DNA of 64,000 nt from Prorocentrum cordatum (lineage: Eukaryota): contig CAUYUJ010000003.1 in assembly GCA_963575745.1 (NCBI GenBank), forward strand, positions 744,001-808,000, read 5' to 3'. Made by a program: the position numbers and the translations under genes. The notes below the pieces were generated by a model. The model was given only the letters and a program-made list of their open reading frames with translations, had not been told where the DNA came from and did no database searches. Below, in pieces: positions 5,356-33,668 of the stretch (its first letter is position 1; each line of letters opens with the position of its first letter).

Positions 5356-5392
5356 CAGCGGCGGCGGCGGCGGCGGCGACGCCGACGGCCGC
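5052..5392. repeat. (GAC/GGC/CAC)n trinucleotide tract filling a predicted GC-AG intron
   Basis: gacgacgac and ggccac runs; on the minus strand the interval starts with GC and ends with AG. Confidence 0.75.
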
Positions 5393-9256: not shown

Positions 9257-9600
9257 GTGATGCTGGTGACGACGATGGTGCCCCAACGATGATGATGACG
9301 ATGATGATGTTGATGATGATGTTGATGATGATGGTGATGAGGTGATGATGATGATGATGGTGTCCCTATGATGCTGATGATGATAACATTGATTGTGAGA
9401 TCGATGATGGTATCGACAATGAGATCGATAGTTAGACCGGATGTGAGATCGATTGTGAGATCGATAGTCAGATCGTTTGTGAGATCGATCGAATGAAACA
9501 GATCGAGTGGGATCGATTGTGAGATCGATCGAGTAAGGTCGATCGAGCAAGACGGATGGTGACATCGATAGTTAGATCGATGGTGAGACCGATCGAGTGA
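8440..9600. repeat. (GAT)n microsatellite punctuated by GGTGTCCCGATG, grading into GATCGATTGTGA repeats
   Basis: Direct inspection. Confidence 0.9.
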
Positions 9601-10214
9601 GACGTTGGTTCCTCCCCCCTGAACCCCCTTATCACCCGAAGGGTGGCCGTATAGGTGTGTGTGTGTATATATATACTATACGGCCCTTGTGGCAGCGCCC
9701 GCAAAGCGACCACGCCCCACTCTAATATACCCCTCACAATTTTCGTGGCCCCTAAGGGACCTCCACCGAAAGGCCACAGTGGCGACATTCGCTTGCGGCC
9801 GCCCCACATGTTCGGGCACACCGCCCGACGGCCCAAATGACGGCCCCATTACACGACCGTGGCCTCACTTCGGGGGGCCACTCCTAAAGTCCAAGTACAG
9901 CGCCCGCACGGTGGCACCGCCTCATATCGGCACACCCTTTACACGCCCCGTGGTCCAATGAGGAAAACCACCGAAGGCGACACCCACAACGGCGATACCT
10001 ACATCTGCATATGATTGGGCCGTTCGCCAGGATAATTGTTATGGCGCGGACTCCCACGCCTGAAAGCCTTGTGTAGCAGCCGTTACAACAAGGAGTCCTT
10101 GTGTGGCGACCTTCCAAAACTACTTCAAGTGCGGGGCATCTGCGATGGCCGCCACGCGTAATTATCTGGATCCGAGCGATCCCCACCGAAACCTTCGGCG
10201 TTTTGTCCCGAAGG

Positions 10215-10945
10215 TGTTATGTCATGCCGTGCTATGCTGTGTTTCGCTATGATTTAGCATCGTATGCCGCGCTCTGTCATGTTATGCTGTGTCATGGTAT
10301 GTGATATAGTGTGTTGTGATGATGTGGTATGCGGCGGTTCGTTGTGCCATGTTATACTATGTGCTGATACGCAGTGTCATGGTATGATATGTTATGTTGT
10401 TGTATGTTCTAGATGCCCTTATATGCCATAACATACGGTGGTATGATGTGTTACGTTATGACATAGTATGTCATGACATGCAATGATGTGGAATGGTATG
10501 TGGTGGCCTGGTCGGCTCTGCGTTGAGTTGTTATGGCGTACTTGCTCTGCCAAGGTATGGAATGACATGTGCTGCGATGCTGTGTCATGGTGTGGTTGGT
10601 TATGTCATGCTACAGTACGGGGTGCTCTGTTATGCCATGGTGTGTTATGAGGTGTTATGGTATGTTTTGTTATGTGTGCTCTGATATGTCACATCGTGCG
10701 CTGGTACGGTCATATGTCATGATATGTGATTATGTGGCACGTTGTGCTATGGTTTGTTAATTTCTGCGTTGATTTCGTGTGGCATGCTTGATTTGTCATA
10801 GTATGGAATGATATGTGCTGTGATGATGTGCAATGGTATACACTGCTCTGTCATGGTGTGTTGTGTTACGAAATGGTATGTCATGATATGGTATCCCATG
10901 CTCGGATCTGCTCTGTTCGGTGGTGTGGTGTTATGCTCTGCTCTG
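10215..10945. repeat. Degenerate pentamer satellite (GTTAT/GTCAT/GCTAT)
   Basis: Direct inspection. Confidence 0.8.
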
Positions 10946-10949
10946 TGGG

Positions 10950-11215
10950 GACCAGGGGATCTGGCGGCCGCGGCATGCAGAGTGGGCGAGTCGGCGCGGG
11001 GGGTGGAACCACCAGGGATTATCGGGGGACCAGGAGATCTGGCGGCCGCAGTATGCAGAATGGGCGAGTCGACGCGGGGGGCGGGACCACCAAGGATTAT
11101 TGGGATCCTGGGGATCTGGCGGCCGCGGTATGCAGGGCCGCGGGGGGGTGGCTGGACCACCAAGGATTCTCGGGAGCCTGGGGATCTGGCGGTCGCGGTA
11201 TGCAGGGCCGGCGGT
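10950..11215. repeat. Minisatellite, about 70-78 bp x 4 (GGATCTGGCGGCCGC...ACCACCAAGGATT)
   Basis: GATCTGGCGG recurs at about 10958, 11035, 11113 and 11183. Confidence 0.85.
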
Positions 11216-12697: not shown

Positions 12698-14580
12698 GAG
12701 GGTGCGCCGCTGGATCTCCCCCAAGGGGGGGGTTAGAACCCCCCCCCCCTTTCCCGATCCGTCGTCGGGGCACCCCCCCCGTCCCCCCCTGCCCCGATCC
12801 GTCGACGTGGAACAACACCACCCCCCCTCCCCCCCCCCCTTTCCCCCGATCCGACCGTCGAGGACCGACCCCCCCCCCTCCCCCCCCCCTTTTAAAAGGG
12901 CGGGGGGGGTCCGACCCCCCCCTCCCCCCCTTTCGCCACGCCGACCCCTGACTCCGGAACCCAACCCCCGCCAGCCCTACCCCTAGTCCTTACCCTAACC
13001 CAAACGCTTAATCCGAACCCCAACCACGAACCCCAGCCCCAAAGAGTACTCACTACTCAGTACTCACTACCCACTATTGACTTCTCGCTATTCGCTATGC
13101 ACTTCTCAATACCCCCTACCCACTACTCACGACTCACTACTCACTATCCACTACTGACTACCCACCACCCACTACTCGCTACGCGCTACTCCCTACTCAC
13201 TACTCCCTCCTCCCTACCCACTACTCACTACTCACTCCTCACTACCCACTACTCAATACTCACTAGTCACTAGGCACTACTCACTACTCCCTACGCACTA
13301 CTCACTAATCACTACTCATTACCAACTACCCACGATCCACTACTCACAACTTACAACGAGCTACTTATTGCCCACAAATCACTACTCTCTACCCACTACT
13401 CGCTACTCGCTACTCCCTACTCCCTACTCCCTACACAGTACTCAGTACTCAGTACACGCTACTCCCATACTCCCTACCCAATACTCACTACGCCCTTCCC
13501 GCTACTCACTGTTCACTACTTGCTACTTACTACTCCCTACTCACTAGTCACTATATAGTCTCTGGTCACTAGTCACAACTCACTAGTCACTAGTCACTAG
13601 TCACTTCCCGCTACCCACTACTCACCAATCGCTACGCACTACCTACTATTCGCTACCCACGTCTTACTATTCACTGCTCACTACTCCCTACTCCCTACTC
13701 CCTACTCACTACTCGCTACTCCCTGCTCGTTACTCACTAATCACTACCCACTACTCACTACCGACTACTCTCTACTCACTACTCACTACTCACTACGCCC
13801 TACTCGCTCCTCACTACTCACTACTCGCTACTCCCTACTCGATACCCACTACTCGCTACCCACTGCCACTACCCACTACTCTCTATTCATCATTACTCAC
13901 TACTCACTACTCACTACGCACTACGTACTACTCAGAACTCACTACTCAATACTCACTACTCACTACTCGCTACTCACTACTCACTACTCACTATTCACTA
14001 CTCACCACCCACTACTCACTACTCGCTACTCACTACTCACTACGCACTACGCACTACCCACTACTCACTACTCACTCATCACTACTCGCCACCCACTACT
14101 CATTACCCACTTCTCACTACCCACTACTCATTACTCCCTACCCCCTACTCAGTACTCACTACTCGCTACACGCTACTCACTACTCACTACTCGCCACTCA
14201 CTACTCACTCATCAGTACACACTACTCACTATTCACTACTCACAACTCCCCACTCCCTACTCCCTACTCCCTATTCGCCACTCACTACCACTTTCTCACT
14301 ACCCAATGCTCACTACTCTACCCACTAACTCACTACTCGCTACGCACCACTCCCTACTTCCAACCCCGTAATCCCTAAACGAGGGGGGGGGGGGTCCGAC
14401 CCCCCCCCCCCCCCCTTTCCATCGCCAAGGGGGGATGGGGGGGGGGGGTCCCGGACCGCCCCCCCCCCTTCAAGGAGGGGGGGGGGGGTTTCGGGACCCC
14501 CCCCCCCTGAAAAGGGGGAGGGGGGGGGTCTGGACCCCCCATCCATTCGTGTATTCAGGGAGATCCACTGGCGCACTTTC
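12698..14580. mobile_element. Non-autonomous TIR DNA transposon (Mutator-like on the basis of a 9-bp TSD) carrying a (CTACTCA)n satellite
   Basis: Left end GAGGGTGCGCCGCTGGATCTCCC versus reverse-complemented right end GAAAGTGCGCCAGTGGATCTCCC (19/23). Exact TSD GGAATGAGG at 12689-12697 and 14581-14589. No ORF. Confidence 0.8.
13045..14360. repeat. Degenerate heptamer satellite (CTACTCA)n
   Basis: Direct inspection. Confidence 0.95.
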
Positions 14581-15319
14581 GGAATGAGGGTGGAACTGCA
14601 TGCGGGCGCTGCCACTGGATCATTCGGTGGAGCTCCCTATGGGGCCTCGAAGCGTGTGAGGGGTGTGCCGAAACGGGACCGGAAACCGCATGCGGGCGCT
14701 GCCCCTGGGGCCTTCGGTGGGGCTCCCTATGGAGCCACGAAACGTGTGATGGGTGTGCCGAAACGGGAGTGGAACTGCATGCAGGCGCTGCCCCTAGGGC
14801 CTTCGGTGGAGCTCCCTATGGCGCCACGAAACGTGCGAAGGGGTGTGCCGACATGGTTGACTGGTGCGGAGGCCAGAGGCAGGGATGGGACGAGGGAAGA
14901 GAGGGACGAGGAAGGAGAGAAGACGCATGGTCCTGTCGCGCCAAAACGAGGACCCAGCACCACAATATTGTTGGGAAAAGACTAAATGATGAGAGGAATG
15001 CAGAAGGGCTAGGAGAACGATGAGAAGGTTGAATGAACTGATGAAGACAAGTGTCATGAATGAATCAACCATAGCGCGCCATTCAGAATGGAATCTCTCA
15101 AACAGCCCTGGCGTAATCATGCAAACAGCGGGTCGCACGGGGGAGACCGCGGGGAGGAAACAGAGGGGGCACCGTGGCGGAAAAGGCCCAAATGGGGGAG
15201 GAGAACGAGGACGACGAAAAAGGACGGGACGGGACGGGCGCCCATACGGACCTACTGCAAAAGGCCCCGCTCATTTGGGCCCGACGGTGAGGGCCGTAGC
15301 CCATCTTGGCAAGCCCACA

Positions 15320-15510
15320 ATTGGTACGGAAACAGTGGGCACGATGCCCAACAGCAAATGTTTTCCGACACCGACAGCGGCCGCTGTTGGGCTGCCGCCT
15401 TTCTGTCTAAAAGAACAACTTCCACAGTGACGCCGACAGCGAGCCCTGTTCAACATGGTCAGGAACTGCCGTTAGTCTTCGTACCCATTTCTTCCGTACC
15501 CGTTTCGACC
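15320..15510. mobile_element. MITE-like element of about 190 bp; same family as 26146-26350 and 35421-35955
   Basis: GGTACGGAAACAGTGGGCACGATGCCCAACAGCA at the left and an inverted CGTACCCATTTCTTCCGTACC at the right. Interior CGGCCGCTGTTGGGC is shared with the 26.2 kb copy. Confidence 0.6.
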
Positions 15511-17499
15511 CCCCAGACCATAGAAAAGCTAACTGGTCGTTGACCAGGCTACCCAGGACAAGTGTCGTGGTAACAATTCGACGACAGATGCCAGGAGGCG
15601 GATAAGAGGGAGGGGGAGGGGGACGAATAGACCCTCAGGAAGAGGCAGGCCCTGGAGGAGCAGGAGGAGGGCGAGGTCGACGCTGTTGGGGGCATCACGG
15701 GGCGTCGTCGAGGCCCTGGAGCCGGCCCAAGAGGCCAAAAGGGCGGGCCTGGGGCGCTTTGATGTTCTGTGTCTTCGCCAGGTCTTGGGGTCTTCGCGGG
15801 GCGCAATGGAAACCCTGGGGCCCTGGTGCGATGTGATATTCTCGCCTTTTCGGCCGCAAGAACGTCAAAATTGCCCGAGGAGCCCCGAAGACCGGCCCAA
15901 GATGGCCATAGAGGCCTCCAAGAGTGGCTCACGAGGCCCCCAAGACGGCCCCAACACTGGCAAACAAACATGCGCCACCACCGCGCCGCTGGAAGTCAAC
16001 CCCGCCAACCTCTCCAACGTGATCCCAAGAGCCGCAGGAGGACCAAGACGGACCCGAGTGTGCCCAAGAAGGCGCCCCAAGAGCCCCCAAAATGCCACCA
16101 AGGCTTTCGGCACACGACCCCAGGTGTGGAGGTACGATGGGTCCCAGGCCATGGGATTTCCGCCCTCGCATCAAAGCCCCCACAGCCCCTTGCCCCCGTG
16201 TCCCCTTGTGCCTCTTGTGCCCAACCTTTTCTATTGCAGGGTCGGCGGAACCAGCCGCAAGGCTCCTGCTACACGAGGAGCGGGAGGAGGGGAGGGGGAG
16301 CGATGGGGAGGAGGGGGAGGAGGTTGGAGGGGGGAGGAGGGTATGGGGAGGTTGGATGGGAGAGGGAGGGAGGGGGAGGGAGGGGGAGGAGGGGAGAGGG
16401 AGGCTGGAGGGGGCATGGAGGAGGAGCGGGCCCTCGGAAGGAGGGAGGGCGAGGATGACGAATAGGAGGAGGGGACGGCGACGAGGGGGGGGAAGGTGGC
16501 AAGGAACCGGGGAGGCAGGGGAGTAGGAGGAGGCGGGGGAGGGGGACGAGGAGCATGAGGAAGATGATTTCTGTGACGTGGAGGGCGGGGACACCCCACC
16601 CACCCCGCTCCTCCTCGTCCTCCCCCCTCCCCGCTTGTCCTTGCTCTCTCCCAGGCCTTCCTCCTCGTCCTCCTCCCCACTCTCTGTCTCTCTCTCTCTC
16701 TCTCTCCGCCCCTGCCCCCTCCCCTCCTCCGTCCCTCCCCTCCTCGCCGCACCGCCAGACGTGTCGGCAGGGCGGGCCGGGCGTACCGCCCGAGACGTCC
16801 CCAGCGCCTGCGGCCCAGAAACTTGACTGGTTCAGCAGCTACACCGGCGGGGGTCACCGTGCTCACAGTGTGGTTTCTCGCCCGGGTACCGCGCAGCCTC
16901 GTCTGAAACGTGCCCGGCAACGACAAGAACGGAGGGCGGCTGGCTCTCAAAAACTGGCCTCTCGCCTTGGCGCCGCGAGCATCCGCTTCCCCCCAACATG
17001 GAAAAGGATGGAGAGCATCTCCTGCTCAAAACGGGAATGTCGCTTATAACTCCTCAAACTTTCAAGGCCAGGAGTTTGAGCCTATGCGATACAAATGGAT
17101 GCTTCTCTTGTTTGTTGCTTCTCTCTCTCTCTCTTTCTCTAGTGCGTTGTCTTTTATTTGTTTCTCTCTCTCTCTCTCTCTATCTCTCCACCCCTGACTT
17201 TGCATTGAACTAACTGGCCCTACCTCTTCCCGTGCGTCGAAATAGAAGTGCGCAGGCAACCATTATGTGTTAACGGGGCCCTCAGCTGAAAGGCATGACC
17301 ATGTGCGTTCGACTTTTAAGGGGGCGATGTCTGCAGCGGATACGAATGGGTTCTGGAACTTATCAGGAGGGACATTGAGAGAGAGGGTGAATCGCAACAT
17401 CGCTGAGGCATGCTGGGAGTGGTGCGGTCCTCGTCCTCACCCAACCCGATGACACGTCTACTCCACGATCATAGTTTCACCCCCCACCTCCTCCTTCCA

Positions 17500-20146
17500 T
17501 TGGGTAACTCAATGTAATTTGCTTCATTTTCTCCAACGTCCCCAGGCGACGGGAGATCATCAACGCATGTTCTTGGAACGTCGAGTGTTTAACAGACGCG
17601 ATAGTACAACACATTTGCATGTACATGGAGGCGAATTCGATCGATGTCACTGTCCTGCAAGAGACCCGGCGGATGAACACCGATACGTTTGGGTGGGAAC
17701 GATATTTCCTTGGAGATGTTGTTTCGGGCGCGAGGCGCAAATCCCAGTAGATGCCCCAAATCGCGACATGCTGATGGAGCTCTGTTCTGGCCGCGGCTAC
17801 GCGGTGGCGAACACGTTCATGGCCAACGACATCGATAAGCGGGTCACGTTCTGCGAGCCACATTCGCACCAAACGGCAGAGATTTCGGAGAAGAACTTTG
17901 CTATGCTGGATTTGGTGCTTGCTCCACTTGCTGCTTTGGACGGGGTGCTCGCTGTGCAGAGCGACAGGCTCACGGGCTTCTCGTCGCACCACTTCCCAGT
18001 GCACGCACGGCTTGCTTTCCCCAGAGGCAGCCCGAGAAGTCTCGGCGCACACACAGCCGCCTAATCTTGCTTTATTGGAACAGCCAGACGTCAAGAGAGC
18101 TTCTTCTCCACCCGCTGACGGAGAAGCATTACGACGGCAATGGCGCCTCCTCGGGCAACAACGGTTGGAACAAGTTTCAGGTCAACGTCCTGGACACCAT
18201 GGCTCGCTTGCCGCGGCGCCGCGGACAAAACACAGGCCGTGGATCAGCGAGGAACACCCTGAAGCTCATCAACCAACGCTCAGAATTGCGATCTCGTGGA
18301 GACTGGAGGGCGAGAAGACAATTGCCAAAGATATCAAAAAGTCGGCACGCCGAGACCGGGCGTCTTGGCTTCAGAATCTTGCCGCCGACGGCTCCTGGGA
18401 TTCGCTTCGCCAGGCTGAGACGAGGGAGGCGCACCCAGCAGACGCGATTGCAACGCCATACTGGGAAGCAGTTAGCACTGAAGAACGAGCAGGGGCATTC
18501 GCTGATTTCTTGGAGCAAATACAGTGGAAAGTTCGCCACGTGACCGCTTTGCCAGAGTTTTCCGAGCATGCCCAGCCGCAGTTGGACATTGTCGAGACTG
18601 ATTTCACGCACAAGGAACTGCGAAGGGCCATCGTGCGCATGTCACCTGGCCAGAGCGTGAAAGAGAACGACATCCCCATTGAAATCTACAAAATGTTGGC
18701 TTCGGCGGATGGCCACTGTCTACAACCTCTTTTGGACGTCATGAATGCGTGTTTGTCTTCAGAAACAATTCCAGACGACTGGGTGGCGGCGCGGGTGTCC
18801 ATGATCTTCAAGAAGAAGGGCCTTCTTGCATGGACAACTACAGGCCGATTTGCTTAACGTCAGTTGCTTACTGGCTGTTCGCTAGCATGTTGAAGCAGCG
18901 CTTCCTAGATGCTGGGCTGGACAGCCGCATCTGGCCATCGCAATACGGTTTTCGTTCCAAGCGCTGCACAGAGGACGCCATCTTCATAGCCAGGAGACAC
19001 CTTGAACTCGCACACGCACAGCGCTACGGGTCGGTATCTTTCCTGGCACTTGACTGGCGGAAGGCTTTCGACAGCGTGCACACTGAGCGCCTGCTGCATG
19101 CGCTCGCGCGTTTCGGGATCACGCCCAAGCGCGTGCGCATCATCCGCTACATCATGACGAACAGGCGTTTCTTTGTGGAGGATTTCGGTATCAAGTCGGA
19201 CGAGCGGCCGCAGCGGTCGGGGGTATCGCAGGGATGCACATTAAGCCCTTTGCTGTTCATCACATTAATGACGGCCTTAATGCAGGATGCAGTCGCCATG
19301 CTTCTGGAGCCAGCGGCACAGGCATATCGACAGAAGCGACTAGCCGATATTGCTTTCGCAGACGACACGCTGCTGTTGGGCGCGGCAGCAGAACATGTCC
19401 AGCAGTTCGCAGAGGCAGTAGAGCGGGCGGGCGCATGCGCCTCGAGCTGAGCATTTCGACAATTCCAGCTGTTACAGGCGAACTCATGCAAACCGGTCGT
19501 CTTCCGGGGGAAGGCCATACCGAGTGAGGACAGTATCGTGTATCTCGGCTCTTCGTTGTCGGCAGATGGCAAAATGGGCCGAGAGCTTGGCCGCCAGATT
19601 GGGGCGGCAGCTGCAGAATTCTGGGTGCTCCAGAAAAGTTTGGAAGCATTCCTCTCTGCCGCTCAGACGGCGCTTGCAGGTGTACAGTCCCTGGTCGAAT
19701 CCAAGCTGCTGTACGCGCTGCCAGCAGGATGCTTCACGAAGGCGGAACTCCGCAGACTCGATGGATTCCAAGCCAAATGCTTAAGACGTGTCTTACACAT
19801 TCAGCCATCTTTCGTTTCCAAGGATATCCAACGCCACTGTATTACAACGCGCGGGCTTCGAGCAGCCTCCGTGCAAGTGCGACGCAGACAGCTACTGTTA
19901 TTGGGCCGTGTCTTACGCGAGCCGGAGCATTCGGACATGCGAGAGGTCACGTTCATGCCGGGCCTCCCTTTCCTCCCCGCCACCGACAGGTACGTCCGCC
20001 GAGTTGGGGCACCCAGGAAAGAATGGGTTCGAAGTGTTCTGCCCGACGCAATCCGCTTGGCCGGGGACAGTTTCCGACTTCAAGATGCAGTGAGTGACGC
20101 CTCCATGTGGCGCCAAAGAGTGCGCTATGTATGTTTGCATAATTGA
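17500..20146 (+). mobile_element. Decayed RTE-like non-LTR retrotransposon ORF2 (APE endonuclease + RT), multiply frameshifted
   Basis: EN: GGEFD, NRDMLMELC...VANTF, LDLVL...SSHHFPV. RT: NYRPICLTS, QYGFRSKR, LDWRKAFDSV, GVSQGCTLSPLLF, AFADDTLL, YLGSSLS. C-terminal RRVGAPRKEW. Confidence 0.93.
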
Positions 20147-21284: not shown

Positions 21285-21633
21285 AACAACACTCGCCACA
21301 AGAATCCAGTGTCCGGCAAAAGTGGAACAGGATGGTGATGTTCACGTACCGGTATCATCGCACATGAATTGTATGTCAGACGTGCTTTCTGTGATCCGTG
21401 AAGCTATCAGTAACTGTATGCAAGAGATTAAAAGAAAGGAGGGATGGCGACGACACCGACGACGATTCGCAGCCGTTGCCCTCGCGCGTCGGCGGGCCCG
21501 CGGTGCCCGCAAGAGGCGCTCATCCAATGCACTCTAGATAGCTGCGGGCGGCGGCGGCAAGGAGCGAGCAGGGACAGAATAGTAACAACTCCACCAGCGG
21601 CGGGACGCGTAGGTCCGCGTTTCGAACCCACCC
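21285..21633 (-). repeat. Putative 3' LTR
   Basis: Shares ATGGTGATGTT...CCCTCGCGCGTCGGCGGGCCCGCGGTGCCCGCAAGAGGCGCTC...TTCGAA(C/T)CCACCC with 33320-33668. Confidence 0.75.
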
Positions 21634-22889
21634 CAGCATGGGGAAGATTGGGAACTCGCTGACGTCTGAAGAATCGCGTTCCGGGGCGGCTTCCTGGGAA
21701 CATGATTTGTTGAGGTGTCGCTGGGCGCCTCCGGAGGCTTCGGGGCCTGGCGCGCTTCCGACAGGTAGCGCTGCTTGGGGCTCTCGTTTTTTAACTTCCT
21801 GGCGAGCGTTTAGGAAACATGGTTTGGGCAGATGGCGGCAATCCGAGAGTCATGTTCCCGGGGGGCTGTCCAGGGGCGTGATTTGTTCGGCTCTCTTAAG
21901 AAGGGGGGCTTCTGGGGGTTTGCCGAGAGGCCCCTTTCGGCCATGTCGGCATGACCATTGGCAACACGGCTGGGGCGGCGGCGGAAAGCTGTCTGGGAAA
22001 TACGATTTACCGAAGTTTCTTGGGGGCCCACAGGAGGCTCCCCTGGGGGCCCCTTGGGGGTCTATTGGGGTTTCTGGGGGTCCTCCTGGGAGCCTCGCGG
22101 GGTTTCTTGGGAGCCTTTTCCCCAAGAGCGCGCTCACGGAGCGCATCTTTGCAGGGCGTTCCAATGACTGCGAGCATCGCATGCAGGGTTCCTGTCCCGG
22201 ATGGCCTCGACGGCGGGGCCCCGTCATCGCCGCCCCCCCGGCTGAGCCGGTAGCAAAGGGATTCGGGGGCTCACCGCCACCTGCAGGCTGTTGGGAACTG
22301 CCAGCAGGCCCCCGTCCCGTCGGGGCTACACTCGCCCCAGCACTCTGCCCCGCGCCGTCAGTGTGATTTCCATCCGTGGGAACGTCAGCTACGTCGACGT
22401 CTCCGACGGCGCTGGCTGAGATCATTCTGAGGGAAATATATTTGGCGAGACTGTCGGCTGCATTCCCGGCTGAACCGGTTACAAAACTCAACGTATTATT
22501 GCTTATCCTTTTTGAACCGTCATTGGATGAGGTAGCAGGGTCGACCACGAGAACTAAGTATGCATATATGTTCTTCCTTTTCTCGGGGTCCTCGGCTCGA
22601 CTCTTCCACCTGGGGGCGCGCTGAGGTAGCTCCTGTCAAAGAGGAACCGCATGCGTGGACCTAACGCGTTTGCCCATGCAGACGCCCCCTCAAAAAAGGT
22701 CACAAACAAGCGCAGTGCAAGTGAGGGGCGGCCCAGCAGATCAGCAGGAGCGAGGGAGTCGCGGCCGCCCGGGGGTGGCCAGCTTTGCGGGCTGATAGTC
22801 GCTACGACTGCAAGCCCATGGGCCAAGACGACAACGGCGGAGCATGCATGTCGCGAGCGTGGTGACACGCTGCAACAAGTCTGCCAGGC

Positions 22890-23560
22890 ACGCACAATAA
22901 CAATCGGCATCTGTTTCACGAAGGCATCAGTCAGATTTTCCGACTGCTCACAATTCTTACCCCTAGCTTCAACATGATCGCGCGCTCCATCGCTACATGT
23001 TTGCAATCCTTTCGCAACGCCACCAGATGTAGACGCAACTGTCCAAGGCTTCTTCATGGCATTCCCTTGCGCGTCTCCTAGTCCATACGCGAACCCGTGC
23101 AATCTGCGCGCGCGACATTGATTAGCACGCAGAACGTCTCGCACTTGCGGGTCCCGCCAGTGCTGATATGCCGAAGGACATTGTATGCAAACTCCCCCAT
23201 CCCTCCTGCAACGCCACAGTAGCAATATCACGGGCATTCCAAAAAAGTTGTCAGAAGACGGCGTTAATTCTTCTCAGGCGCCTCAATGGTATGTGATCTC
23301 CTTGTCGGCAGTGCACGGGTTCGTTCACGCATTGCCACGGTTGCCCTCCAGCGCGTGGAATAAATGCCCAAGGGGAAAAATACGTTTGCCCTTCAACGCC
23401 TTGATATTACAGAATGCTTCTTTCCCCTGAATCGGTTGTCATGTCTTCCTCCTTTTACTGCGCTGCGAGTGGCAACTGCGTTGTTGTCGTAGTAGTTGAT
23501 GAGATTACCAAGATTGCAATGTTCGCTACGACAGAATTTCGCGACGGGTGCGAAGTTTGC
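22890..23560 (-). pseudogene. C5 cytosine DNA methyltransferase-like domain remnant inside the Copia element
   Basis: Ordered remnants AKFCRSEHCNLG (motif I-like), KEEDMTTDSG, NA*TNPCTAD (PC, motif IV-like, about 23313-23318), GGVCIQCP...W (motif VI position), HGFAYGL...KKPW (motif VIII position), C...DH...RG...SENLT (IX/X position). Contains stops and frameshifts. Confidence 0.6.
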
Positions 23561-23994
23561 TTGTCGGGCCCTGTTTTGACACCATAGCATCACTTGATTC
23601 GCCCGCAGCTGAGATGAACAGAAGCAGTCGCATCGTCGGCCTCCGTTGCCGCGGCGCCACTAGATAAACAAGTAGCTGCTGGCGTGGAAAAGGCTAACTT
23701 GCCAGTGACTCCCCCCCCCCCCCCCCTTCCCGACGCGCATAAGTTCGTTTTCCTTGCTGGGCACATGGGCGCTACTTCGCGCTGCCGCCACGGGGCCGAC
23801 AGCTGGCTTGAGAATTCCCCCGGGTGTCAGGGAAGTCTGTCATCGAACGCCAGTGTGACCTATTGATGGTAGCCTTTGGTCTCCTAGAAATTGGGCGAAC
23901 AATGTGAACCAAGTCGCACAAGCGCCTGACTCCATGCAAGTGCATCAGTGAATCTCCTGGTTCCAACGACACCTGCATATTTTTGGGCGCGGTC

Positions 23995-24400
23995 ATATTG
24001 AAGACGCACGGTGCCTCTGCTGAGCTGTTCTGAGTTCTGAAAAGGCTGCGGCATCAATTGGATGCACGCGAAGGAGATTCATCAATTTCTGTGAGTCCCC
24101 TGCATCGCTCACTCTGCATACCGCGTGATTGTCCTCCAAGGAAAAACATGTTGCGGCCCGCTGCAGCTGCATTTCCCGCGATGGCAAAGATGTCAACAGT
24201 TGCGTTCGCAGAGCCAGGCAGACAGCCACAAGCTTAGCCTCCAACGTGCCGTGGGACACACAAGTCTGGCTTCGGGGGGCCATGCTCTGAGATGCTCTAG
24301 CTGGCCCTCGTGCAAAGCCCCCAAATGATCTGGCACTCGTCTTTCTATGGGCACGCGCGTCACGCGCCAGATCTGCGTCGGAATACAAACTGATCTGTAC
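23995..24400 (-). pseudogene. Copia RNase H remnant
   Basis: LYSDADLARD...RKTS, QTCVSHGTLEAKLVA, EDNHAV, KLMNLLRVH. Confidence 0.85.
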
Positions 24401-24999
24401 TGTCCACAAGTCGTCCCCGACCCGTGAAACTACGCGGTAATGAAGCGTCGCTTTGGTGTAGAATCTCAGTCTGAACGGGCCGACGTCCCACTGTTTCATC
24501 AATTTTGTCACGCAACTCGCAGCATGGCCAACGGCTCGTAACAAGACAAACCCCGCCATTCGAGCCCCATGCAACATGTTCATCAACATTGTCGCCGCAA
24601 TTTGTTGTAACATTCCAGGAGGTTCGGGCTGCTGCGACATCGCGTGCGATGGCACCACGCGCAAATAGGGGGCCGCGACTTCTTTGTCGTGAGGACCAGC
24701 GGTGACGGGAACGCTGAGTGCCTTCGCCGACGCCTCCTCAGTCGGCGGGGCAATTTTGCCTCGGGGACCCCCTTGTCCGTCCCCGAGGCCAGCCAACTCC
24801 GGTCCGCAATGCGCCCCCGCCGACGGGCAAGTTTGGAGGCCAGCGCCCTTCAATTGGGCGTCGAGAAGGATGCAAGACTCAAAGAAATCCGCCACATCAT
24901 TCTCAGTGGCCTGCACCTCCGCGGTTTGTTTGGGCATCTATGGCTCGGGCGGATGTCGGGCATCTTTATGGAATCCCGCGCCATCGCTACCTCCCCCGT

Positions 25000-25900
25000 T
25001 AGAGTCGCCCCACGAATCGTCGACAGAGTCTTCTTCTGTTTTGGCGGCGGCGGATCAAGGAAAGCGGGTGGCCCCCCGCGCAATTCCACGGTTATCCTAC
25101 AGAGCTTGCGTCCACAACCCAAGCATCGACCAACCCTCGAAGGAGGATCAATCTCAATGCCGTTGGAGCAGCCGGTTGGCGGTTCTCGCATCATTCCCCA
25201 CCCTGCGTCCATGTTTTTCCGAAGGGCAAGAAATATTGGAATAGTCAACATTTTAAATCAATGGCAATTTCATTTATTGGTGGCACTAACAGCTGCGTCA
25301 AGGGCTACGTTTGGTGAAAACATGTGACATGATATGATTATCGCAACGCTGCGCCCAGTAACACAATATTCAGGATGACCACAGGGTGGGGCATCAACGG
25401 GAAGACAAGTTTCTTTATGTGCGACCACTAATCTGGCCATTCTTCTCCCGGCAAGGACTATCCAAGTGGGGGTCTTTCCCAGCTTGGGCTGTGCATATGC
25501 CTGTTTGGTGTCAGCCAGTTGTATTTCATGGCCTTCGCGCAATCCGCGCGCGTCGGCCACCTTGCTTGCGCGCGTTGTGGCAGGACTACTTGCGTGTTCC
25601 TGGACGAGCGCGACACCTCTATTGTAATCTCGAGCGTCAGACTTTTTTGTTTACTTACGACCCTTGGGACCCCCAGGCAATTCAGACTTCTTTTCTCAAT
25701 CAGGATCGCGAAGAGTCGACCGACATGCGCAGTCTTGCCCGGTAAATTCCCGAGCGCGCCATTGTAACATTGAGCTTGACCTTCGCCCCGAGTTCCGATG
25801 GCTGAGTCTGTCGCACTCAGCCCGGAGAGCCTCGTGGGCTTCTGGATCCACTGCTGCCTCGGACTGCGCAACCGAGCGTGCGACTGCCGCACTAATCAGC
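25000..25900 (-). pseudogene. Copia reverse transcriptase remnant
   Basis: VARSVAQSEAAVDPEAHEALRAECDRL, AHVGRLFAILIEKRS, ADTKQAYAQPKL...PTWIVL, GHPE (matches the AxLQ and LYGHP-type motifs). Confidence 0.8.
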
Positions 25901-26145
25901 GATGGCCGAGGATCAGCCAGCACCCCGACTGAATCCGCCGACGGCTCGCCCCTGTCAAACGCTTGATTCGTGCATGTAAAAGGGAAGTGGCAGCACTGCA
26001 GAATCATCCTCTCCTTCTCCCTGTAGGGCTGTCCATGAGAAAATGGTCGCTGGAATGGCACACTGGGCGCGCCGCGCCGCCGCGCGGCCCCGGCCCGTGG
26101 CCGGGCGGCCCCGTTTCGGGGGGGGAGGTTCCCAAGGGCGATGAT

Positions 26146-26350
26146 TTGGACGCCCGGAATGGGCCCGGAAACAACGGGCGCAATGCCCGACGGCAAATGT
26201 TGCCCCGAACCAACGGCGGCCGCTGTTGGGCAGGCGACCTTCTGTCTCTAATGGGCGCAGGCCACGGCGGCGCGGACAGCGAATCCTGTTCAAAATGATT
26301 AGAAACTGCTGTTGGGCATTGTGCCCAGGCCCTCCGCGCCCATGTCGTTC
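26146..26350. mobile_element. MITE-like element nested in the Copia pol region
   Basis: GGGCGCAATGCCCGACGGCA and inverted TGCTGTTGGGCATTGTGCCC; interior similar to 15320-15510. Confidence 0.6.
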
Positions 26351-27559
26351 GCGCAGAGATGATCACCCCGGATGGAACCTGGAACGTCGCCGCCCCGGAG
26401 GGTCGCTTCCCCGCGCCACGTCTGCCGCCGCCAAATCTTCTCATCATCTGATTCAGTGTCGGAATCCAATTACAGCTCCACAATCGCCACGCGGCACGAA
26501 CTGCTGTCGGGCAGAAGTTCTCCAGCTACAGCAATGCTGCCCTTGGCGTCGTGCGCTGCTCTCCCAACTTTGATCCCCATGCATCGCACAAGTGCCAGAC
26601 ATGGCCCCTGGTCTTTAATTGCGAAGAGTCATATTTTTATGTTGTACTTCTCTACGGCGCGGCTGCGTTCTCCAATGGGGCCCTTGGCCATGCGAAACCA
26701 GATGCTGGGATGCGCGCCGGGATTCGTTGATCTATTGATCTTCTTCAGACATTGACAACCGCGATGCGGGTCCTCAACGCGCTTTACGGTGATGGGGTCA
26801 CAGTTCGGGTCGCAATAAAGAACCGCGCGCGGTGCATGTCCTTCGTTTTCCAGTGAGCGGTAAACTTCTGGGACGGTATATCCGACGAGCATCCAAAGAC
26901 ATGTTGTTTCTCTGCAAACTATTCCATGGTGTCCAGATTCTGAATGGCGCGAGCCAATGGCCCCCTTGCTCTCGGGCCCCCCCCCCCCCCCGGAACCGCG
27001 ACGCCCATGTGAAACATGCGAATGTCTGTCCATTTTGTGCTCGATAAAGCGAAGACCAAGCTTCCCTCCCATTTCGGCTGGACCGCCCCGTTGATGATCG
27101 GATCCATCTGCCACCGAAAGCCCTTCAGTCGGTCGCGAACCCCCCGGGCCCTCGTCATCAGATTGGTCTGCTGAGTCGGAACCGACAGCGGCATCGTCTC
27201 TCTCGCGCGTCGCAGAGTGGGGCGCCGGCGGAATGATATGTTCAAATTACTCATAAACATCAGTTGGCGCACGCGCAGCTGGTCTGCATGTCCGCGGCCG
27301 GTTGAGCTCCACTGGAAGAGTCACCAGCTGCGTCTCTGGGCGGCGCTGCCACCGTTGCAATTTGAGCGATGGCCTTCTCGCGCGCGTCTTTCGTTGGAAA
27401 CTCAGGTTCTCGGTTATCCGCAGTTGCATCGAGAGAAATGCTGTATACCTGCTCAGATTTCTCAATGACCGGCCGAGTGCCATCAGGCCTGCGCCCAATC
27501 ACCATGTCAAGACCTTCGAGTGATCCCACAGGAGCAGCATAACTCTGTTCCAACGACTC

Positions 27560-29080
27560 CCCCCGCCTTGCGCACACATCCCAGAAATATAACTGGAATC
27601 ACATCGTGGCCCGTCTTGGCCATTCGGCATCGAGGTTCCCGTGGTGGCATGTAGCGAACACCGAAAGGAATGAGAGCAGCTGAAAAGGATGATCCGAAGC
27701 GTGCTTGAAAACTGGATGCCCCTTCCTTGTCCTGCCTACCATCGTACAAAAGACAATAATGCCGCGCGGCATGCGTCCATAATGGCGGCGGTGGAAACGC
27801 GCGAGTGCCCACCTGGGGGATCCCGTTCGACGTTTCGGCAACTGCTGCAAGTTTCTCGTTGCCAGGGACGGCGGCGGCGCGCGCGCAGCGAAGTCCCCGG
27901 CGCGCGCGCAAGCTCGCGAGCACCATCCGCGAAACGATCCGCCAAGAAATTGCACGCGCGGGCCGTCGGCTGGCCATGGGCGCCGCGCGCGGCAGGGCAA
28001 TGTGGGAACCGATCGCGACATGTCGCGCGCGCAGTCTACCCATCGAGTCCCTGCGATAGCTGATCAGCTGAAAACCAGCGATCCATGGTGGTGAGATGTC
28101 CGAAGCAAGGAGGGCCAGAGCATGGTCTGGCAACTTCTAGCCTTTTATCATGGCCCGGGATCCTGCGATGCCGCAAGCGAAATGCCTCTGCCATTTTGCG
28201 TGCCTCACAGAAAAGAATTCTGAGGGGGATCTGCCATAGGATGATGGGCGGAGACTGCGTCTTTCTCTGGGCGCTCAGCAAACGACTTCTCGGCGCCTAC
28301 CTCTTCTGGTTCGGCCGGTGGTTCAGCGACGTCGACCAAATCTTCGTCGGCGGGGCCGGTGACCTCGCCCGCGTCGGGCTCGCCGGGGGCGGGGGTGGAA
28401 TCAAAGCGCCCATCTTGGGAGTCATGGGGCAGATTCCCCGAGACAGCCCCCCCCCCCCCGCGGGCCGCTCGCATTCCCCGATCCGAAGACCCCCGACGGA
28501 GTTGGCGGCAACGGGTGAGCCGCAATGGCACCTGCTGCACTATATGTCCGCACATGTTTGCCCGAGACCAGAGGCGAGCAAAAAAAATAAGCGGTGGCAT
28601 CCACAGGTTCCGCGTCCAACGGGGGCGAATAGTCCGACTGGATCGGTCGGCCGTCTAGATAACTGCGAGTGGCAATCACCTCTTTCGCATGCAGGCCCAT
28701 GGTTGTGCGGGTCTGGGCAGAGCTTGCAGGGGGGCCTCCAGCCGCCCCCGCATCATCCAGAAAAAGCCGCGGCGCCCGGCACCGCGCGCGCCTCCCTAGA
28801 GCATCCGCCCCCAAGGCGACTGCGCATCTCCAGCGGCCTAAAACCTCCCCTGAGTGCGAGATGCGATATCATTCCATCGACGGTCAAATTGACTCATCTT
28901 GTCCGGAGTAAATATAGGTTTTGGCACGCAAGCCAATAACGACTAAACCCGCGATCCATGCAACGTTACCAAATTGAAAACACGCCCGGACGTCGGGCAT
29001 GACGGGCGCTTTGAACTGACCGTCTTGAAATGTACGACATGCCGCGCTAAGTGGACCTAAGGCCCTACTGGAGCCTCTGG
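27560..29080 (-). pseudogene. Copia integrase remnant, split by an insertion at about 28040-28850
   Basis: PLSAACRTFQ (Zn-finger position), FGN...GLVVIG, GTRA...PPLWTHAARHYC, RFG...LIPFG, VIFLG. Confidence 0.65.
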
Positions 29081-29949
29081 CAGAATTCAGAATAATACAT
29101 GGAAGCGGCTTCCACATCTTACCCGTAGCATTTGCACTTTCAACAAATCTCCCAGCGACGAGATTGAAACTGTAGCACGCGCCTACTTTAATTCGCATTG
29201 AACCCAAACTGACACGATCATTCCATCGGTCTCCGACGGCTGCGTTGCCTTCGGATTCGTTCTCCGATCCCGACCATAATCTCCAAACCTCGCTCTCGAG
29301 TTCCGAGGCCTTCGAGATGGTCTTAACCGACGGTGTCATGACCTTCAGAACCATGCAGGATTGCATGTCCTTTGTCTGGAAATTACCATCTGCCCTGACT
29401 AGAAGATGGGGGAACTTTCCCCCCTTATCTGGCCTTTCTTACGGTAGCGGTGGGATTTCTCGTAAGATGGTGAGCACGCGTTGTGAGGCCACGCGTTGCG
29501 GAAAGTGTCATCTTCGCGCAACTCTGCCTTGGGGTTGCGCCATGCGTTGTCTCGATGGCAGCCCTTGGTAAAACGGTATTATTCTCTCTGTGCCACGTCT
29601 GACACAGTGACAGGTGCTGCGTCCACCTTGTCCCTGGCATGTTCCACGTAAAACGCGGGCTCTAAATTGACGACGCCATTGGGAAAGTGATCCGTACCCG
29701 CGTCAGTTGACAATTCGGACCATGTGCAAAATGTTAAAGGTGCTGGGCAAACATCATGCCTGCTCAACGTCATGATTACAATCGGCCTCTTGTTACTATA
29801 CCGTCGACTTAATCGACAAACGAGCGCTGGGGCGCAGATCGCACATCATGCAAATATCGCAGCCATCACCATCAAGTTAAAATGTCGGTGGTCAGCGCGT
29901 CCCCAGGGAACGAATGGCTGAGCCACTGTCCAACAGTAGCCAACGCCAT

Positions 29950-30860
29950 GGATGTCCTGGCGCGTTGGCGCGGAAACGCACCAAGCACCGAGAGGGCAAT
30001 TCTTCTTTTCGATCCAATTCCAGCAGGGAGCACTGCCTTTGCCTTTTCCACTCCCTTTGCTGCAGGTACTTCTCAGACTACCCTTGTCACTGCGAACTAG
30101 CCGCGGAACTTCTTTTGGCTGCGTTAGCCGCAACTGACCCGGCCTGTTTCTGACTTCGCCCATGCTGCTGCTACCGCGCTTTCTTTGCAGCTTCCTCCAA
30201 TTTGTCGCGTCGCAGCATCTCGTCGGGAGTCAATTTCCTACGCTGTCGATCACAGGGCGGGCCACGCGGATGACCTCGGCATTTGCCGCTCGAGAAAGCA
30301 TGGCCAGCCATATTCTCTTGCAGCCATTGTACAGGGCCCCCCGGCAAACTCCCCGCGTCTCTGGGCCCCGGGGTAGCGGGCCTATCTCTGAGGCCTGCCC
30401 CCCTGCCCTCGTCATCTTTATCTACCTTGGGCATCGCAGCCGGCTGGGCCGGTTGCGGGGGGGGGGGCGGCTGCCTTGGGCCACTTGCAATTGAACGGGC
30501 GCCCCTACTCCTCATCTGGGCATCGCGCGCCTTGCAGAACACACAGGCAAGCGACTTCAATCTTCGCCCGCCCGTCTGCGACCGCAGCTGTGGATTTCCC
30601 CGACGACTTCTTTGGGTCGGCGGGGCCTGGGGCGGCAGACTTGCTCTCGTGCTTTCCTCTTCGGTTCTGCGGTTGGGAATCTTCCTCCGACAGTCCAAAT
30701 GAATATCATGCCGTTCCTTCTCCGTGCATTGCCGCTGTTGGCGCAGCAACCGTTCATGTGTTCTGACATCCGCTCCTACCTTGGCATTGCTCAGTCATGG
30801 AAGGCCTGCGCCATCTGCATCTTCGAAAAGATCTTCACCTCATCATATAAATGATCATGG
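29950..30860 (-). pseudogene. Gag remnant with a CCCH-type zinc finger
   Basis: KGSGKGKGSAPCWNWIEKKNCPLGAWC (C-x8-C-x5-C), located upstream of pol. Confidence 0.55.
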
Positions 30861-30932
30861 GTCGCCGCGGCCATCTCTGGGGGTGGCTTGGGGCCTCCGC
30901 GAAGGTCGCGGCAAAGAGACATCCGCCCGCTG

Positions 30933-30970
<38 letters not shown>

Positions 30971-33319
30971 TCATATATTTAACATACGAATCCCCATCAA
31001 GTTTGCCCCTGGCCACGACAATTTTGAACGCATCCCGCGCCGCCGCGCCCCCGCCGTGCTCTGCGCGGACGGGCGGCAAATGACTGATCGCACGCGCCAT
31101 CTCTCGCCCGGTAAACAAACGGACCCATCATGCGCATCGCGCCCCATTTGCGACATCCGCGCAACGGGGTGCGCCCGCCGCGGTGGGGGATGATTCGCCT
31201 GCCCCATCTGGGACAACTTCTCCGTCGCATCCACAACAATCAACATATCCATCCGTTCGCACTTCCCTCGGTGTCGCGGAACACCGGGGTCTTTATCGGA
31301 GCCGTTGCTTGAGCGATCCAAGGCATTGCCCCTCTGCATCAGGGGGTGTCAATGATATTGGCCGCGTCGCATGGATCTGCCATTCGGCAGGCCCCGTGGC
31401 ACTGTGTATTGGCATCCGCTTGATTTCCGATGCCCCCCTCATCTGCCCCCAGAAACCCTGGGGATATGTGATGGGCCCATGCCGTCTTTACCATCACCCC
31501 CTCCAAATCCACCGGCGCGAGGTGGCCCGCCTGCTCCGCCATCTCCGCCCCCGACTGAGTCGCGAGCGTTCGGCGCCGGGACAGGCGGCCCATCTGGGGC
31601 CCCCAAATGGTTCGAGGAACTGAAGGGGCAGAGGCTCGCCGAGGAAGCGTCGCCCCAACCGTTCGAGGGCGCGCCAACAACTGTCATGCAATTCAGATGT
31701 GATCTCCGACTCAGCATGAGCCCCCCTTGTTTTGCTTTCTCGGAATATCATCGCCATTGCCGTGCATTCGCAAGGAAGTCCTTCTGTTGCTGAGCGAGCC
31801 TGGCTGCGAGCGCCCGTATCTCCCACTGCCGAGAGCGCCGATGCCCCTCCTCCGGACGTTTCTGGGCAGTTTCCGCCACGGCTTCCGTCGTGTCGCGAAC
31901 GAATTGCCTCGCCGTTTGGTAATGGGGCCGATGCGGCTGTCGCAACATGGCTTGGAACATCAAATGCGCGTTATCCCCTTTCCCGTCTTAACAGCAATGA
32001 TGCATTTGCACGTCTCCCGAGGCAGCGGCGACGCGCGGTCGCGGCTCTCTCTCCAAGGCCCGATGCGTTGAGCTTCCTGGCATCAAGGGCTAAGCCTCGA
32101 ACGCTAATCCGCTCGACCCACCGCCCCCGGGAAGGTAAGCGCCGACTCGGGTCTCCTCGGAAATCACGTGGATGTTTGCGTTCATTTTCATTGTTTGAAG
32201 AGTGGCGGTGCGCTCTCGAAGGTCCGCTTGCTGCGCGACTGCTACGGCCTCTTCATTCGCGCGGCGAACCAGGGCAGCTGCTTGCAACGCTTTCTCTTGC
32301 ATCGCGTCTTCCGCCGATCGATGAGAACTCTTCGCCTCTATCTCCAACTTCTGCAGATGTGATTTCCCTCGCTGAAGTTTCCCCCGCAGTTCTGTTTCCC
32401 TTTTCTACCATCTCTTGTTCCGCAAATTACTACAACTCCTCATTGTGCCATTCAACCTCGATCAGAGACAGCTGAGCTGCCCTCGACGCTGCCTGCCGGC
32501 CCAGATGGGCTTGCTGCGCGGCCCGCAGAAGGTCTCTTTCTCATGCTTAAGCTTCCGGAATCGTCCTTCGCGAAGTCTCGTTCCAGTGGCCAAGCCGGTC
32601 GAAAACGCGGACTCTGGGGGATCTCGCATTCCCGGGACAAGCATTTTCCGCTGATGGGTAACATCGCGGTCCTCGGGCCAGACATATCACTGTGAACGAA
32701 AGGCCCCCAGAAGATGACGCCTGGGATCCTGGGCTGCTCCTTGACCACGCGCGCATTCTAGCTGCTAGTGGCGAAAGGCACACAAGTTTCCGGATGGCGT
32801 TACGTCGAGACAACATTGCAATCGGGATGCGCCCTGGGATTTATCGCGTAGCCGGGCAATCCTGATCGCCAAGCAAACTTTGCGCCACCCTGAAATTCGG
32901 ATTTGGAAAATGATGCCCCATGCTTGCTTCTTCAGGTACTTCGGGACGCTTTGCCTCAGGCGTCTCTCCTGCGTTGTGTCTTGCGTGGTCCGTCTGCGCC
33001 AGAATCAACGCATTTTTATGTATGATGGGCCAAATCTCCGAACTCCGATCATCTTCTTCCATGATAGCTGAAAGCGCATGGTCCTCATCATCTTCCCAAC
33101 CCATGAATTGAACCAGCGCTGAACCGCCGTCTTCAAGTGTAGCAAAAAGGGTCATCCGTGAAAGAACCATGGGAACGACTGACGGCTTATGACACAAAAC
33201 ATCATTTAGCGGAATGTTCGGCGGCTCTCTTTTGCGGTCTCAAATTTGAACAAGCGCATGGATACCATTTGTATTTGTCATTTGCATGTCAGATACAACA
33301 TTCGAGCTTTCGGCTGATA

Positions 33320-33668
33320 GCCAGCCACTTGCTAAAGGAATACGGCGCCCGGCAACAATGGGATATCATGGTGATGTTAAAGTGCCGGTCTCATCGCCCA
33401 TGATGGGTACATCAGACATGTGTTCTGCGATCCGTTCACCTATGAGTAACAATATACGAAAAAACTGAATAAACGAGGAGGGATGACGACGACACCGACG
33501 ACGACTCGCAGCCTTTACCCTCGCGCGTCGGCGGGCCCGCGGTGCCCGCAAGAGGCGCTCCTCCAATGCAGCCTAGATCACTGCGGCGGCCGCAGGGAAC
33601 GAACAGGGAGAGAAGAGTAACAACGCCCCCCGCGGCGGGACGTGTAGGCCCACGCTTCGAATCCACCC
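33320..33668 (-). repeat. Putative 5' LTR (may extend to about 33190)
   Basis: Direct repeat of 21285-21633; begins with TG on the minus strand. Confidence 0.75.

Follow-up and report, generated by a model that had tools for sequence, protein, structure and literature searches.

The window analysed here, a stretch of 64,000 nucleotides from Prorocentrum cordatum (contig CAUYUJ010000003.1, positions 744,001 to 808,000), carries the heavily decayed pol of a retroelement, which is read in three frames of the minus strand from 30500 to 22400. Downstream of the degraded RNase H of this Copia-like element lies the remnant of an accessory domain, which we call XD. An earlier note, made from the letters of the window, had described this segment as a cytosine methyltransferase-like domain carried by a Copia-type long terminal repeat (LTR) retrotransposon. 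Our data demonstrate that XD belongs to a conserved protein family and indicate that it is, almost certainly, a genuine accessory domain within Copia pol. Moreover, its predicted fold points to the C5-cytosine methyltransferases, a likeness that is confined to the level of the predicted fold.

In the window, XD is distributed over three reading frames (Table 1). The C-terminal half contains the family motifs IEWP..C.YW, HGC.YGL...KKPW, C.G.H.H..C.G and SE.YT, and alignment with the metagenomic locus L019 and the proteins P0004 and P0002 showed that the window reads IQCP for the family IEWP, HGF for HGC, and SENLT, with LT for YT. The middle part contains ..T...D.T..G and LW.SIPCTGGSPWQ..N, followed by a long helix. 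The first motif gave a weak alignment when taken alone (E 0.097 against one target), and its position and order match the family. A profile built from 20 sequences detected a single XD occurrence in the window, and tblastn found no second copy of the local open reading frames (ORFs) there.

The four strings quoted in the earlier note all lie within 22890-23560 on the minus strand: KFCRSEHCNLG at 23539-23507, NA*TNPCTAD at 23330-23301, YGLGDAQGNAMKKPW from 23087 and SENLT from 22943. Three of them (KFC..LG, YGL...KKPW and SE..T) proved to be invariant or near-invariant motifs of the family; KFC..S..LG is present in the right order, with the quoted spacing off by one. The fourth, the Pro-Cys of NA*TNPCTAD, was rejected as a chance dipeptide in the wrong frame, one that does not align to the family; the window, translated in six frames, has PC at 2.9 per 1000 residues. 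The true Pro-Cys site lies a few codons upstream in a different frame and has become Pro-Arg in the window (IPRAGGQPWQ, 23332-23361, for the family IPCTGGSPWQ), and the family-invariant Glu of the motif VI-like site has become Gln. The copy in the window is dead, as the earlier note had stated: it spans three frames, its middle part has three stops, and replacements have removed the invariant Cys and Glu as well as further invariant residues.

Relatives of XD were collected by an exhaustive phmmer search of 1.84 billion representatives with the frame-0 read-through of 22554-23990 as the query. The search returned 93 proteins at E<=1e-3, 11 of which reached E<=1e-10, and the best relative, P0002, matched at E 2.9e-23 with 50% identity. 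The best stretches fell on query residues ~243-414, apart from one protein whose stretch starts at 158; query residues 262-390 correspond to approximately 23207-22821 of the window. Thirty relatives were traced to their sources: 18 came from ENA assemblies, eight from the EukProt set of Pyramimonas sp. CCMP1952, and one each from JGI/IMG, GOS, NCBI and Logan. The nearest named relatives are those of the Pyramimonas protein set, and none of these sources gives a pointer to a dinoflagellate.

The family shares a fixed motif order: vIEFCCS..S.IG,.iR.T...D.T..G, LW.SIPCTGGSPWQ..N, IEWP..C.YW, HGC.YGL....G.PIKKPW..AT and C.G.H.H..C.G....SE.YT....H. The Pro-Cys and the E..P are invariant (20/20 and 23/23 full-length sequences), which supplies the conserved Pro-Cys that the earlier note had made a test of its reading. 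The invariant Cys and His residues include C218, C253 and H260 in the numbering of P0073. No Pfam family matched XD, either with 14 members at E<=1 or with 70 members at E<=10.

The connection of XD to pol is provided by P0095, a 2067-aa Copia polyprotein and cluster mate of the phmmer match P0013, which contains CCCH zinc fingers (zf-CCCH), rve, RVT_2, RNase H and a C-terminal XD. P0095 matches Pfam RVT_2 with 35.4 bits (cut-off 31.6), and the reverse transcriptase (RT) of the window element aligns to it (Table 1), which identifies this RT as the RVT_2 type of Ty1/Copia. The Ty1/Copia domain order of protease, integrase, RT and RNase H is found in P0095 and in L019, and the minus strand of the window has integrase, RT and RNase H in the corresponding order. 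The five tblastn matches of P0095 to the integrase, RT, RNase H and XD remnants are collinear on that strand, confirming that the segment lies on the same strand as pol and after RNase H. By eye only, we also read a protease string, LLLDSGS, near 29950 and a pol tail, FTDALAWSQALVRLGSHCSPNF*, in the stretch that joins RNase H to XD.

A pattern scan of JGI metagenome contigs yielded 82 pattern matches and, among these, 34 confirmed XD loci, onto which P0095 was mapped. XD follows RNase H in ten of the 34 loci (L010, L011, L019, L020, L022, L027, L029, L039, L040 and L042), precedes RT in four (L013, L014, L017 and L021, with the integrase upstream in L014 and L021) and precedes the protease in two (L032, at 9341-11014, and L035); the remaining 18 are short contigs with XD only. 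XD also stands before RT in the proteins P0021 and P0093. In L019, L014, L021 and L039, XD lies in frame within long ORFs (Table 1), and identity to P0095 is 36-41% for XD, 30-35% for the integrase and 44-52% for RT. In-frame fusion to pol, one of the checks that the earlier note had proposed, is thus seen in P0095 and in the open ORFs of L019, L010, L020 and L022. The finding that would have undone its reading, namely absence of the segment from other family members as expected of a nested insertion, is contradicted by relatives that carry XD fused to pol.

Substitution patterns within XD were assessed by the Nei-Gojobori method in six pairs of loci. The ratio of nonsynonymous to synonymous substitution rates (dN/dS) was low in the four pairs with a stop-free XD: 0.078 for L019/L030 (220 codons, with dS of ~1.1 near saturation), 0.097 for L030/L036, 0.069 for L019/L036 and 0.071 for L018/L033. 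Ratios were higher, 0.13 and 0.36, in the two pairs with L041, a frameshifted copy. As judged from these codon comparisons, XD is under strong purifying selection. We propose that Pol regularly includes XD, in frame, in one lineage of LTR retrotransposons from aquatic protists, Copia-like and of the RVT_2 type; the domain follows RNase H in the window element, P0095 and L019, and in other members it precedes the protease or stands between integrase and RT.

Table 1. Remnants of the Copia-like element in the window and long metagenomic ORFs with XD in frame. Depth is the summed depth of contigs of sequencing run X1 placed at >=80% likeness.
Feature	Position	Strand	Basis or remarks
Candidate 3' LTR remnant	21290-21633	minus	79.5% identical to 33326-33668 over 347 columns
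XD remnant, ~215 residues	22902-23545	minus	three frames; downstream of degraded Copia-like pol RNase H
XD C-terminal half	22902-23210	minus	hmmsearch with 20-sequence profile, E=8.5e-28, profile positions 102-205; stop-free; phmmer matches; tblastn with P0095 1940-2048; alignment with L019, P0004, P0002
Host ORF of XD C-terminal half, 239 aa	22554-23273	minus	
XD middle part, second frame	23200-23496	minus	hmmsearch, E=7.9e-4, profile positions 15-105; 3 in-frame stops; tblastn with P0095 1875-1915 at 23323-23454; alignment with L019, P0004, P0002
XD motif 1, third frame	23504-23545	minus	window VAKFCRSEHCNLGN against family vIEFCCS..S.IG; profile positions 4-14
XD as matched by P0095	23323-23454 and 22908-23228	minus	tblastn, E 2.7e-16
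pol tail and RNase H-XD linker	23546-24034	minus	between tblastn matches; G run at ~23703-23727 on minus strand
RNase H, degraded	24035-24685	minus	tblastn with P0095 1547-1759, 34% identity, E=4.4e-25
Reverse transcriptase, degraded	25114-25911	minus	tblastn with P0095 1210-1477, 31% identity, E=1.6e-20
High-copy repeat nested between integrase and RT remnants	25808-26775		run X1 depth 5760 and 873 in two bins
Integrase, C-terminal part	27561-27791	minus	tblastn with P0095 885-964, 29% identity, E=0.002
Candidate 5' LTR remnant	33326-33668	minus	partner of 21290-21633
L019 ORF, 2877 aa	4508-13138		XD in frame
L014 ORF, 2712 aa	871-9006		XD in frame
L039 ORF, 2158 aa	606-7079		XD in frame
L021 ORF, 1947 aa	920-6760		XD in frame

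The structure of XD was predicted with AlphaFold2 (AF2) from two alignments. Model 1, built from 70 sequences with P0073 first, reached a mean predicted local distance difference test score (pLDDT) of 82.9, mostly >90 in the domain, and a predicted template modelling score (pTM) of 0.77; model 2, of the L019 domain with 23 sequences, reached a pLDDT of 87.2 and a pTM of 0.83. Both models are alpha/beta Rossmann-type domains. In a Z-ranked structure comparison, C5-methyltransferases of every subfamily occupied the first 19 ranks with one model and the first 11 with the other. The predicted fold is the Rossmann fold of class I methyltransferases, with solved C5-methyltransferases as its nearest structures and with their returning C-terminal helix.

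Foldseek pointed in the same direction. Its lists for the PDB were dominated by DNMT1, DNMT3, DNMT2, M.HhaI and MET1, with the best rows for DNA methyltransferases (DNMTs) at 1.4e-3 and 1.0e-2. Against predicted viral structures, six matches reached E<=1e-3, and viral cytosine methyltransferases matched XD at E 1e-5 to 8.5e-4, among them a 218-aa protein of Tetraselmis virus 1 (7e-5) and a 212-aa protein of Lactococcus phage P087 (2.9e-4); the compact viral matches (210-218 aa) carry the name cytosine DNA methyltransferase. By ESM features, which we treat as a lead only, the nearest Pfam-named cluster was PF00145 for 2/2 members tried, with a score of 0.87.

In C5-methyltransferases, motif IV (PC) occupies the loop after strand 4 and motif VI (ENV) the end of strand 5, while the canonical motif I is the FxGxG loop that binds S-adenosylmethionine (AdoMet). 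In the AF2 model of XD, the invariant Pro-Cys comes directly after strand 128-132, and strand 184-190 ends in the invariant Glu188. From their place in the predicted secondary structure, the Pro-Cys and the Glu are predicted to be equivalent to motifs IV and VI. On this prediction, XD is a compact Rossmann domain, of the C5-cytosine-methyltransferase type, in which the Pro-Cys in the loop after the central strand would take the place of motif IV, the Glu that closes the next strand would take that of motif VI, the C-terminal helix would fold back against the domain, and a short Cys/His-rich segment would stand in place of the target-recognition domain. Its most likely function would be AdoMet-dependent C5 methylation of cytosine in the cDNA or RNA of the element. 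Taken together, we assign a probability of roughly 0.6 to the reading that the segment is the remnant of a Copia Pol accessory domain of the C5-methyltransferase type, which most likely methylated the nucleic acid of its element and is dead in this copy. Kinship of XD with the C5-methyltransferases is in itself probable; that XD transfers methyl groups falls somewhat short of an even chance.

Several observations weigh against this reading, and they concern both the structure and the sequence of XD. The alignments behind the two AF2 models overlap, and the models are not independent; the Z margin over unrelated Rossmann folds of SDR oxidoreductases is small (2.3 and 1.7); and Foldseek returned no PDB match at E<=1e-3 with either model, so that this check, which the earlier note had suggested, yielded DNMT-dominated lists and viral matches without a significant solved structure. 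The motif VI-like site reads E-W/L-P (EWP), not ENV. Motif I, which succeeds the first strand, reads [E/D]-aromatic-C-C-[S/G]-x-x-S-x-I-G, without a glycine-rich loop and without FxGxG. A conserved QxRxR (motif VIII) was not seen in the XD alignments. A normal target-recognition domain, which C5-methyltransferases have between motifs VIII and IX, is not present; instead, ~35 residues containing C.G.H.H..C separate the final helix from the last strand. The PF00145 model, another check put forward earlier, matched 0 of 70 XD members at E<=10; at that threshold it likewise failed to match any of the six frames read through 21634-23990. Finally, hhalign gave a probability of 0.2-0.3% for XD against Dcm, against an alignment of 11 C5-methyltransferases (Dcm, seven phage enzymes and three Dcm relatives) and against gp15 of phage P087, with templates of low diversity. 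The claim of a cytosine methyltransferase-like domain is therefore supported at the level of the predicted fold and not by PF00145 or hhalign.

Other searches were similarly silent. P0095 gave no PF00145 match at E<=0.01, and Pfam applied to the ORFs of the window and to the six frames of 21634-23990 found only a sub-threshold HTH_26. Pfam also found no RVT_2 or rve at E<=0.1 in the read-through frames of 23800-33400; because these domains are missed in the decayed pol, the silence of Pfam over the XD segment has little weight. The relatives found for E. coli Dcm were 74-100% identical and of little use for a diverse profile. No PDB sequence related to the 239-aa ORF was found by phmmer at E<=10, and word-seeded protein searches with the RNase H ORF and the protease-integrase read-through returned nothing. 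Profile searches of the PDB with the XD alignments returned nothing beyond artefacts of His-tags or designed proteins.

XD might be a genuine accessory domain of Copia whose Rossmann fold is generic and whose chemistry is another, for example that of a cysteine- or zinc-dependent nucleotide or nucleic-acid enzyme, its likeness to methyltransferases being convergent or topological. The proximity of SDR oxidoreductases (within 1.7-2.3 Z), the lack of any sequence or profile link to PF00145 and the missing glycine-rich AdoMet loop are all consistent with this explanation, and because many Cys and His residues of XD are invariant (C218, C253 and H260 among them), metal binding is suggested. Beta-carbonic anhydrases also appeared among the Foldseek rows; we rejected them, as they superpose with a root-mean-square deviation of ~16 A and lie outside the best 50 rows of the Z-ranked comparison. 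Against a generic fold stand the unbroken run of C5-methyltransferases at the top of the rankings for both models (19 and 11 ranks), Foldseek lists dominated by DNMTs rather than by SDR proteins, the viral cytosine methyltransferase matches (E 1e-5 to 8.5e-4), and an invariant Pro-Cys after a strand and an invariant Glu ending the next, as would be expected of a C5-methyltransferase. We regard a generic Rossmann enzyme as unlikely. Alternatively, XD may descend from a C5-methyltransferase and have lost methyl transfer, to serve as a module of Pol that binds nucleic acid or a partner, as DNMT3L does for DNMT3A. In favour of this, XD has a motif I that departs from the canonical form, and its ENV, QxRxR and target-recognition domain are either changed or absent. 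On the other side, DNMT3L has lost its catalytic residues, and an unused catalytic centre is hard to reconcile with a Pro-Cys and a Glu that are invariant in 23/23 diverged sequences and with dN/dS of ~0.07-0.1, and we consider a non-catalytic module improbable.

That the motifs arose by chance, or that the segment is an unrelated nested insertion outside the element, has a negligible probability. The Pro-Cys quoted originally is indeed a chance dipeptide, Pfam finds nothing in the region, and run X1 covers XD at single-copy depth (2.35-3.03). Yet the neighbouring pol remnants lie at the same low depth, and Pfam misses RT and integrase here as well, which leaves its silence with little weight. 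The relatives of XD, the collinearity of the window with P0095, the profile match (E=8.5e-28) and the in-frame position of XD in open ORFs of up to 2877 aa already contradict such an origin. The interpretation of XD as a C5-methyltransferase-type accessory domain of Copia Pol can be taken further: XD may represent an undescribed minimal C5-methyltransferase lineage of ~215 residues, with a Cys/His knuckle for a target-recognition domain and an unusual cofactor loop, exclusive to Copia-like retrotransposons of marine and freshwater protists, occurring at three Pol positions and methylating the cDNA or RNA of the element itself. We put this fuller version forward tentatively, as a possibility with the odds against it.

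The ends of the element are less clear than its coding part. The 344-bp pair 21290-21633 and 33326-33668 is the only direct repeat pair that flanks the element, and at 79.5% identity it does not establish the 3' LTR that the earlier note had assumed. On the minus strand, the candidate 5' LTR is followed at 33312-33323 by TGGCTATCAGCC, which resembles a tRNA primer-binding site of the usual Copia type. No polypurine tract, target-site duplication or similarity beyond the 344-bp pair was found at the element ends, and a tRNA-like T-arm string at the repeat end was discarded, with no ARAGORN call. XD lies 1.27 kb from the candidate 3' LTR. The intervening region at 21452-22419 is moderately repeated (run X1 depth 45.6 and 76), and long ORFs there, at 21850-22635 on the minus strand and 21542-22366 on the plus strand, have no Pfam match.

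Within run X1, depth is ~2-6 in the element outside the high-copy insert, and the element including XD is at single-copy depth at the stated likeness; runs X2 and X3 contained next to none of the window stretch. The gap between integrase and RT, in which the high-copy repeat is nested, is ~900 nt longer in the window than in P0095. Part of this repeat (26145-26247) is 76% identical to 15306-15408. The Copia remnant is adjoined by a LINE-like element on the plus strand (17453-20146), whose ORF at 18683-19450 matches Pfam RVT_1 (E=9.1e-28) and which has an endonuclease-like stretch upstream, recognised by eye only. An ORF upstream of the LINE-like element, at 15533-16465, has no Pfam match, and no search was aimed at a DNMT ORF1. 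Short tandem repeats, of period 14 or 21, form long arrays at 13047-14377 and 14436-14862; ARAGORN called a tRNA-SeC-like feature at 14436-14510, followed by three 90-bp tandem copies at 14594-14862.

Two of the metagenomic loci have further open sequence around the domains described above. In L019 (2-13138), the ORF with protease, RT, RNase H and XD continues for ~500 residues past XD to the end of the locus and is preceded by a 1501-aa open frame, with a single stop between them; Pfam found nothing in either extension. In L021, residues 1694-1829 of the ORF 920-6760, after RNase H, have a weak match to PTS_2-RNA, the RNA 2'-phosphotransferase Tpt1/KptA family (E 8.2e-5, 23.2 bits, cut-off 26). 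From this similarity, the stretch may be a second captured enzyme domain.

The capture of DNMTs by retrotransposons is itself known. De Mendoza et al. 2018 (PMC5890265), in the passages relevant here, describe SymbioLINE-Dnmt and SymbioDIRS-Dnmt3 of Symbiodinium and KnitGypsy-Dnmt3 of Klebsormidium; the earlier note had placed capture in dinoflagellate LINE, DIRS and Gypsy elements, which holds for LINE and DIRS, the Gypsy case being from a charophyte. Like SymbioDIRS-Dnmt3 and KnitGypsy-Dnmt3, XD is a cytosine-methyltransferase-type domain in a retrotransposon Pol polyprotein, whereas the SymbioLINE domain is described as lying in the coding region. Those passages further report Ka/Ks <0.2 (PMC5890265), comparable to the dN/dS of 0.07-0.10 in XD, and the place of the DNMT among the Pol domains varies between elements, as it does for XD. 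The differences are equally clear: the domains described there are recognisable DNMTs of the Dnmt3 type or of a Symbiodinium-specific clade and two of them methylate CG de novo (PMC5890265), whereas XD matches no PF00145 model, has ~215 residues without a normal target-recognition domain, and resides in Copia rather than in LINE, DIRS or Gypsy hosts.

For Copia, the same source states, where it touches on the superfamily, that Symbiodinium Copia 'lacks any DNMT domain' (PMC5890265). A 2025 paper, citing the 2018 work, refers in one sentence to members of DNMT3 inside 'LTR Copia and DIRS' elements (PMC12344493). Beyond that sentence, full-text searches of the literature, supplements aside, brought up no account of a DNMT-like domain in Copia. 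A captured methyl-CpG-binding domain is reported for arthropod Copia (PMC6673714). There too a methylation-related host domain has entered a Copia coding region, but it reads methylated DNA, whereas XD has a predicted fold of the writer type.

Among proteins outside retrotransposons, the C5-cytosine methyltransferases of PF00145 (M.HhaI, DNMT1, DNMT3A/B, DNMT2 and MET1) have no sequence or profile similarity to XD. They differ from it in having FxGxG where XD has CC[S/G]xxS, ENV where XD has EWP, a QxRxR that is not seen in XD, and a target-recognition domain where XD has ~35 residues with C.G.H.H..C. Similar in size to XD are the compact proteins A0A2P0VN45 of Tetraselmis virus 1 and gp15 of Lactococcus phage P087 (~210-220 aa), which gave the best E-values obtained with Foldseek (1.3e-5 to 2.9e-4, with template modelling scores by target of 0.50-0.68); these are free-standing viral genes, whereas XD is a Pol domain. 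P087 gp15 (L044:11474-12112, 212 aa), which is annotated as a DNA methyltransferase, itself matches PF00145 only at E 0.022 with 14.6 bits, below the cut-off, and its hhalign probability against XD is 0.2%. Compact viral 'cytosine methyltransferases' may be poorly covered by the Pfam model.

Captured DNMTs have been interpreted as a means by which retrotransposons tag or shield the cDNA they make. DNMT surveys use PF00145-type profiles, and in protist genomes the LTR superfamily of highest abundance is often Copia. What would be new here is the capture of a methyltransferase-type domain in Copia, too divergent for the standard profile and found at three Pol positions. XD escapes PF00145 profiles entirely (0/70); if it is a methyltransferase, such surveys will have under-counted writers, and Copia joins LINE, DIRS and Gypsy among the hosts. 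If the reading as a minimal methyltransferase is true, XD would be the first such writer described in Copia and would represent a DNMT class invisible to survey profiles. An enzyme of ~215 residues without a normal target-recognition domain, if real, would inform the minimal core of C5-methyltransferases. The occurrence of XD at three Pol positions under strong purifying selection would make these elements a good system for the role of a methyltransferase-like activity in retrotransposition. Even if the likeness is only topological, XD would still be a conserved, unannotated and enzymatic-looking domain of Copia Pol.

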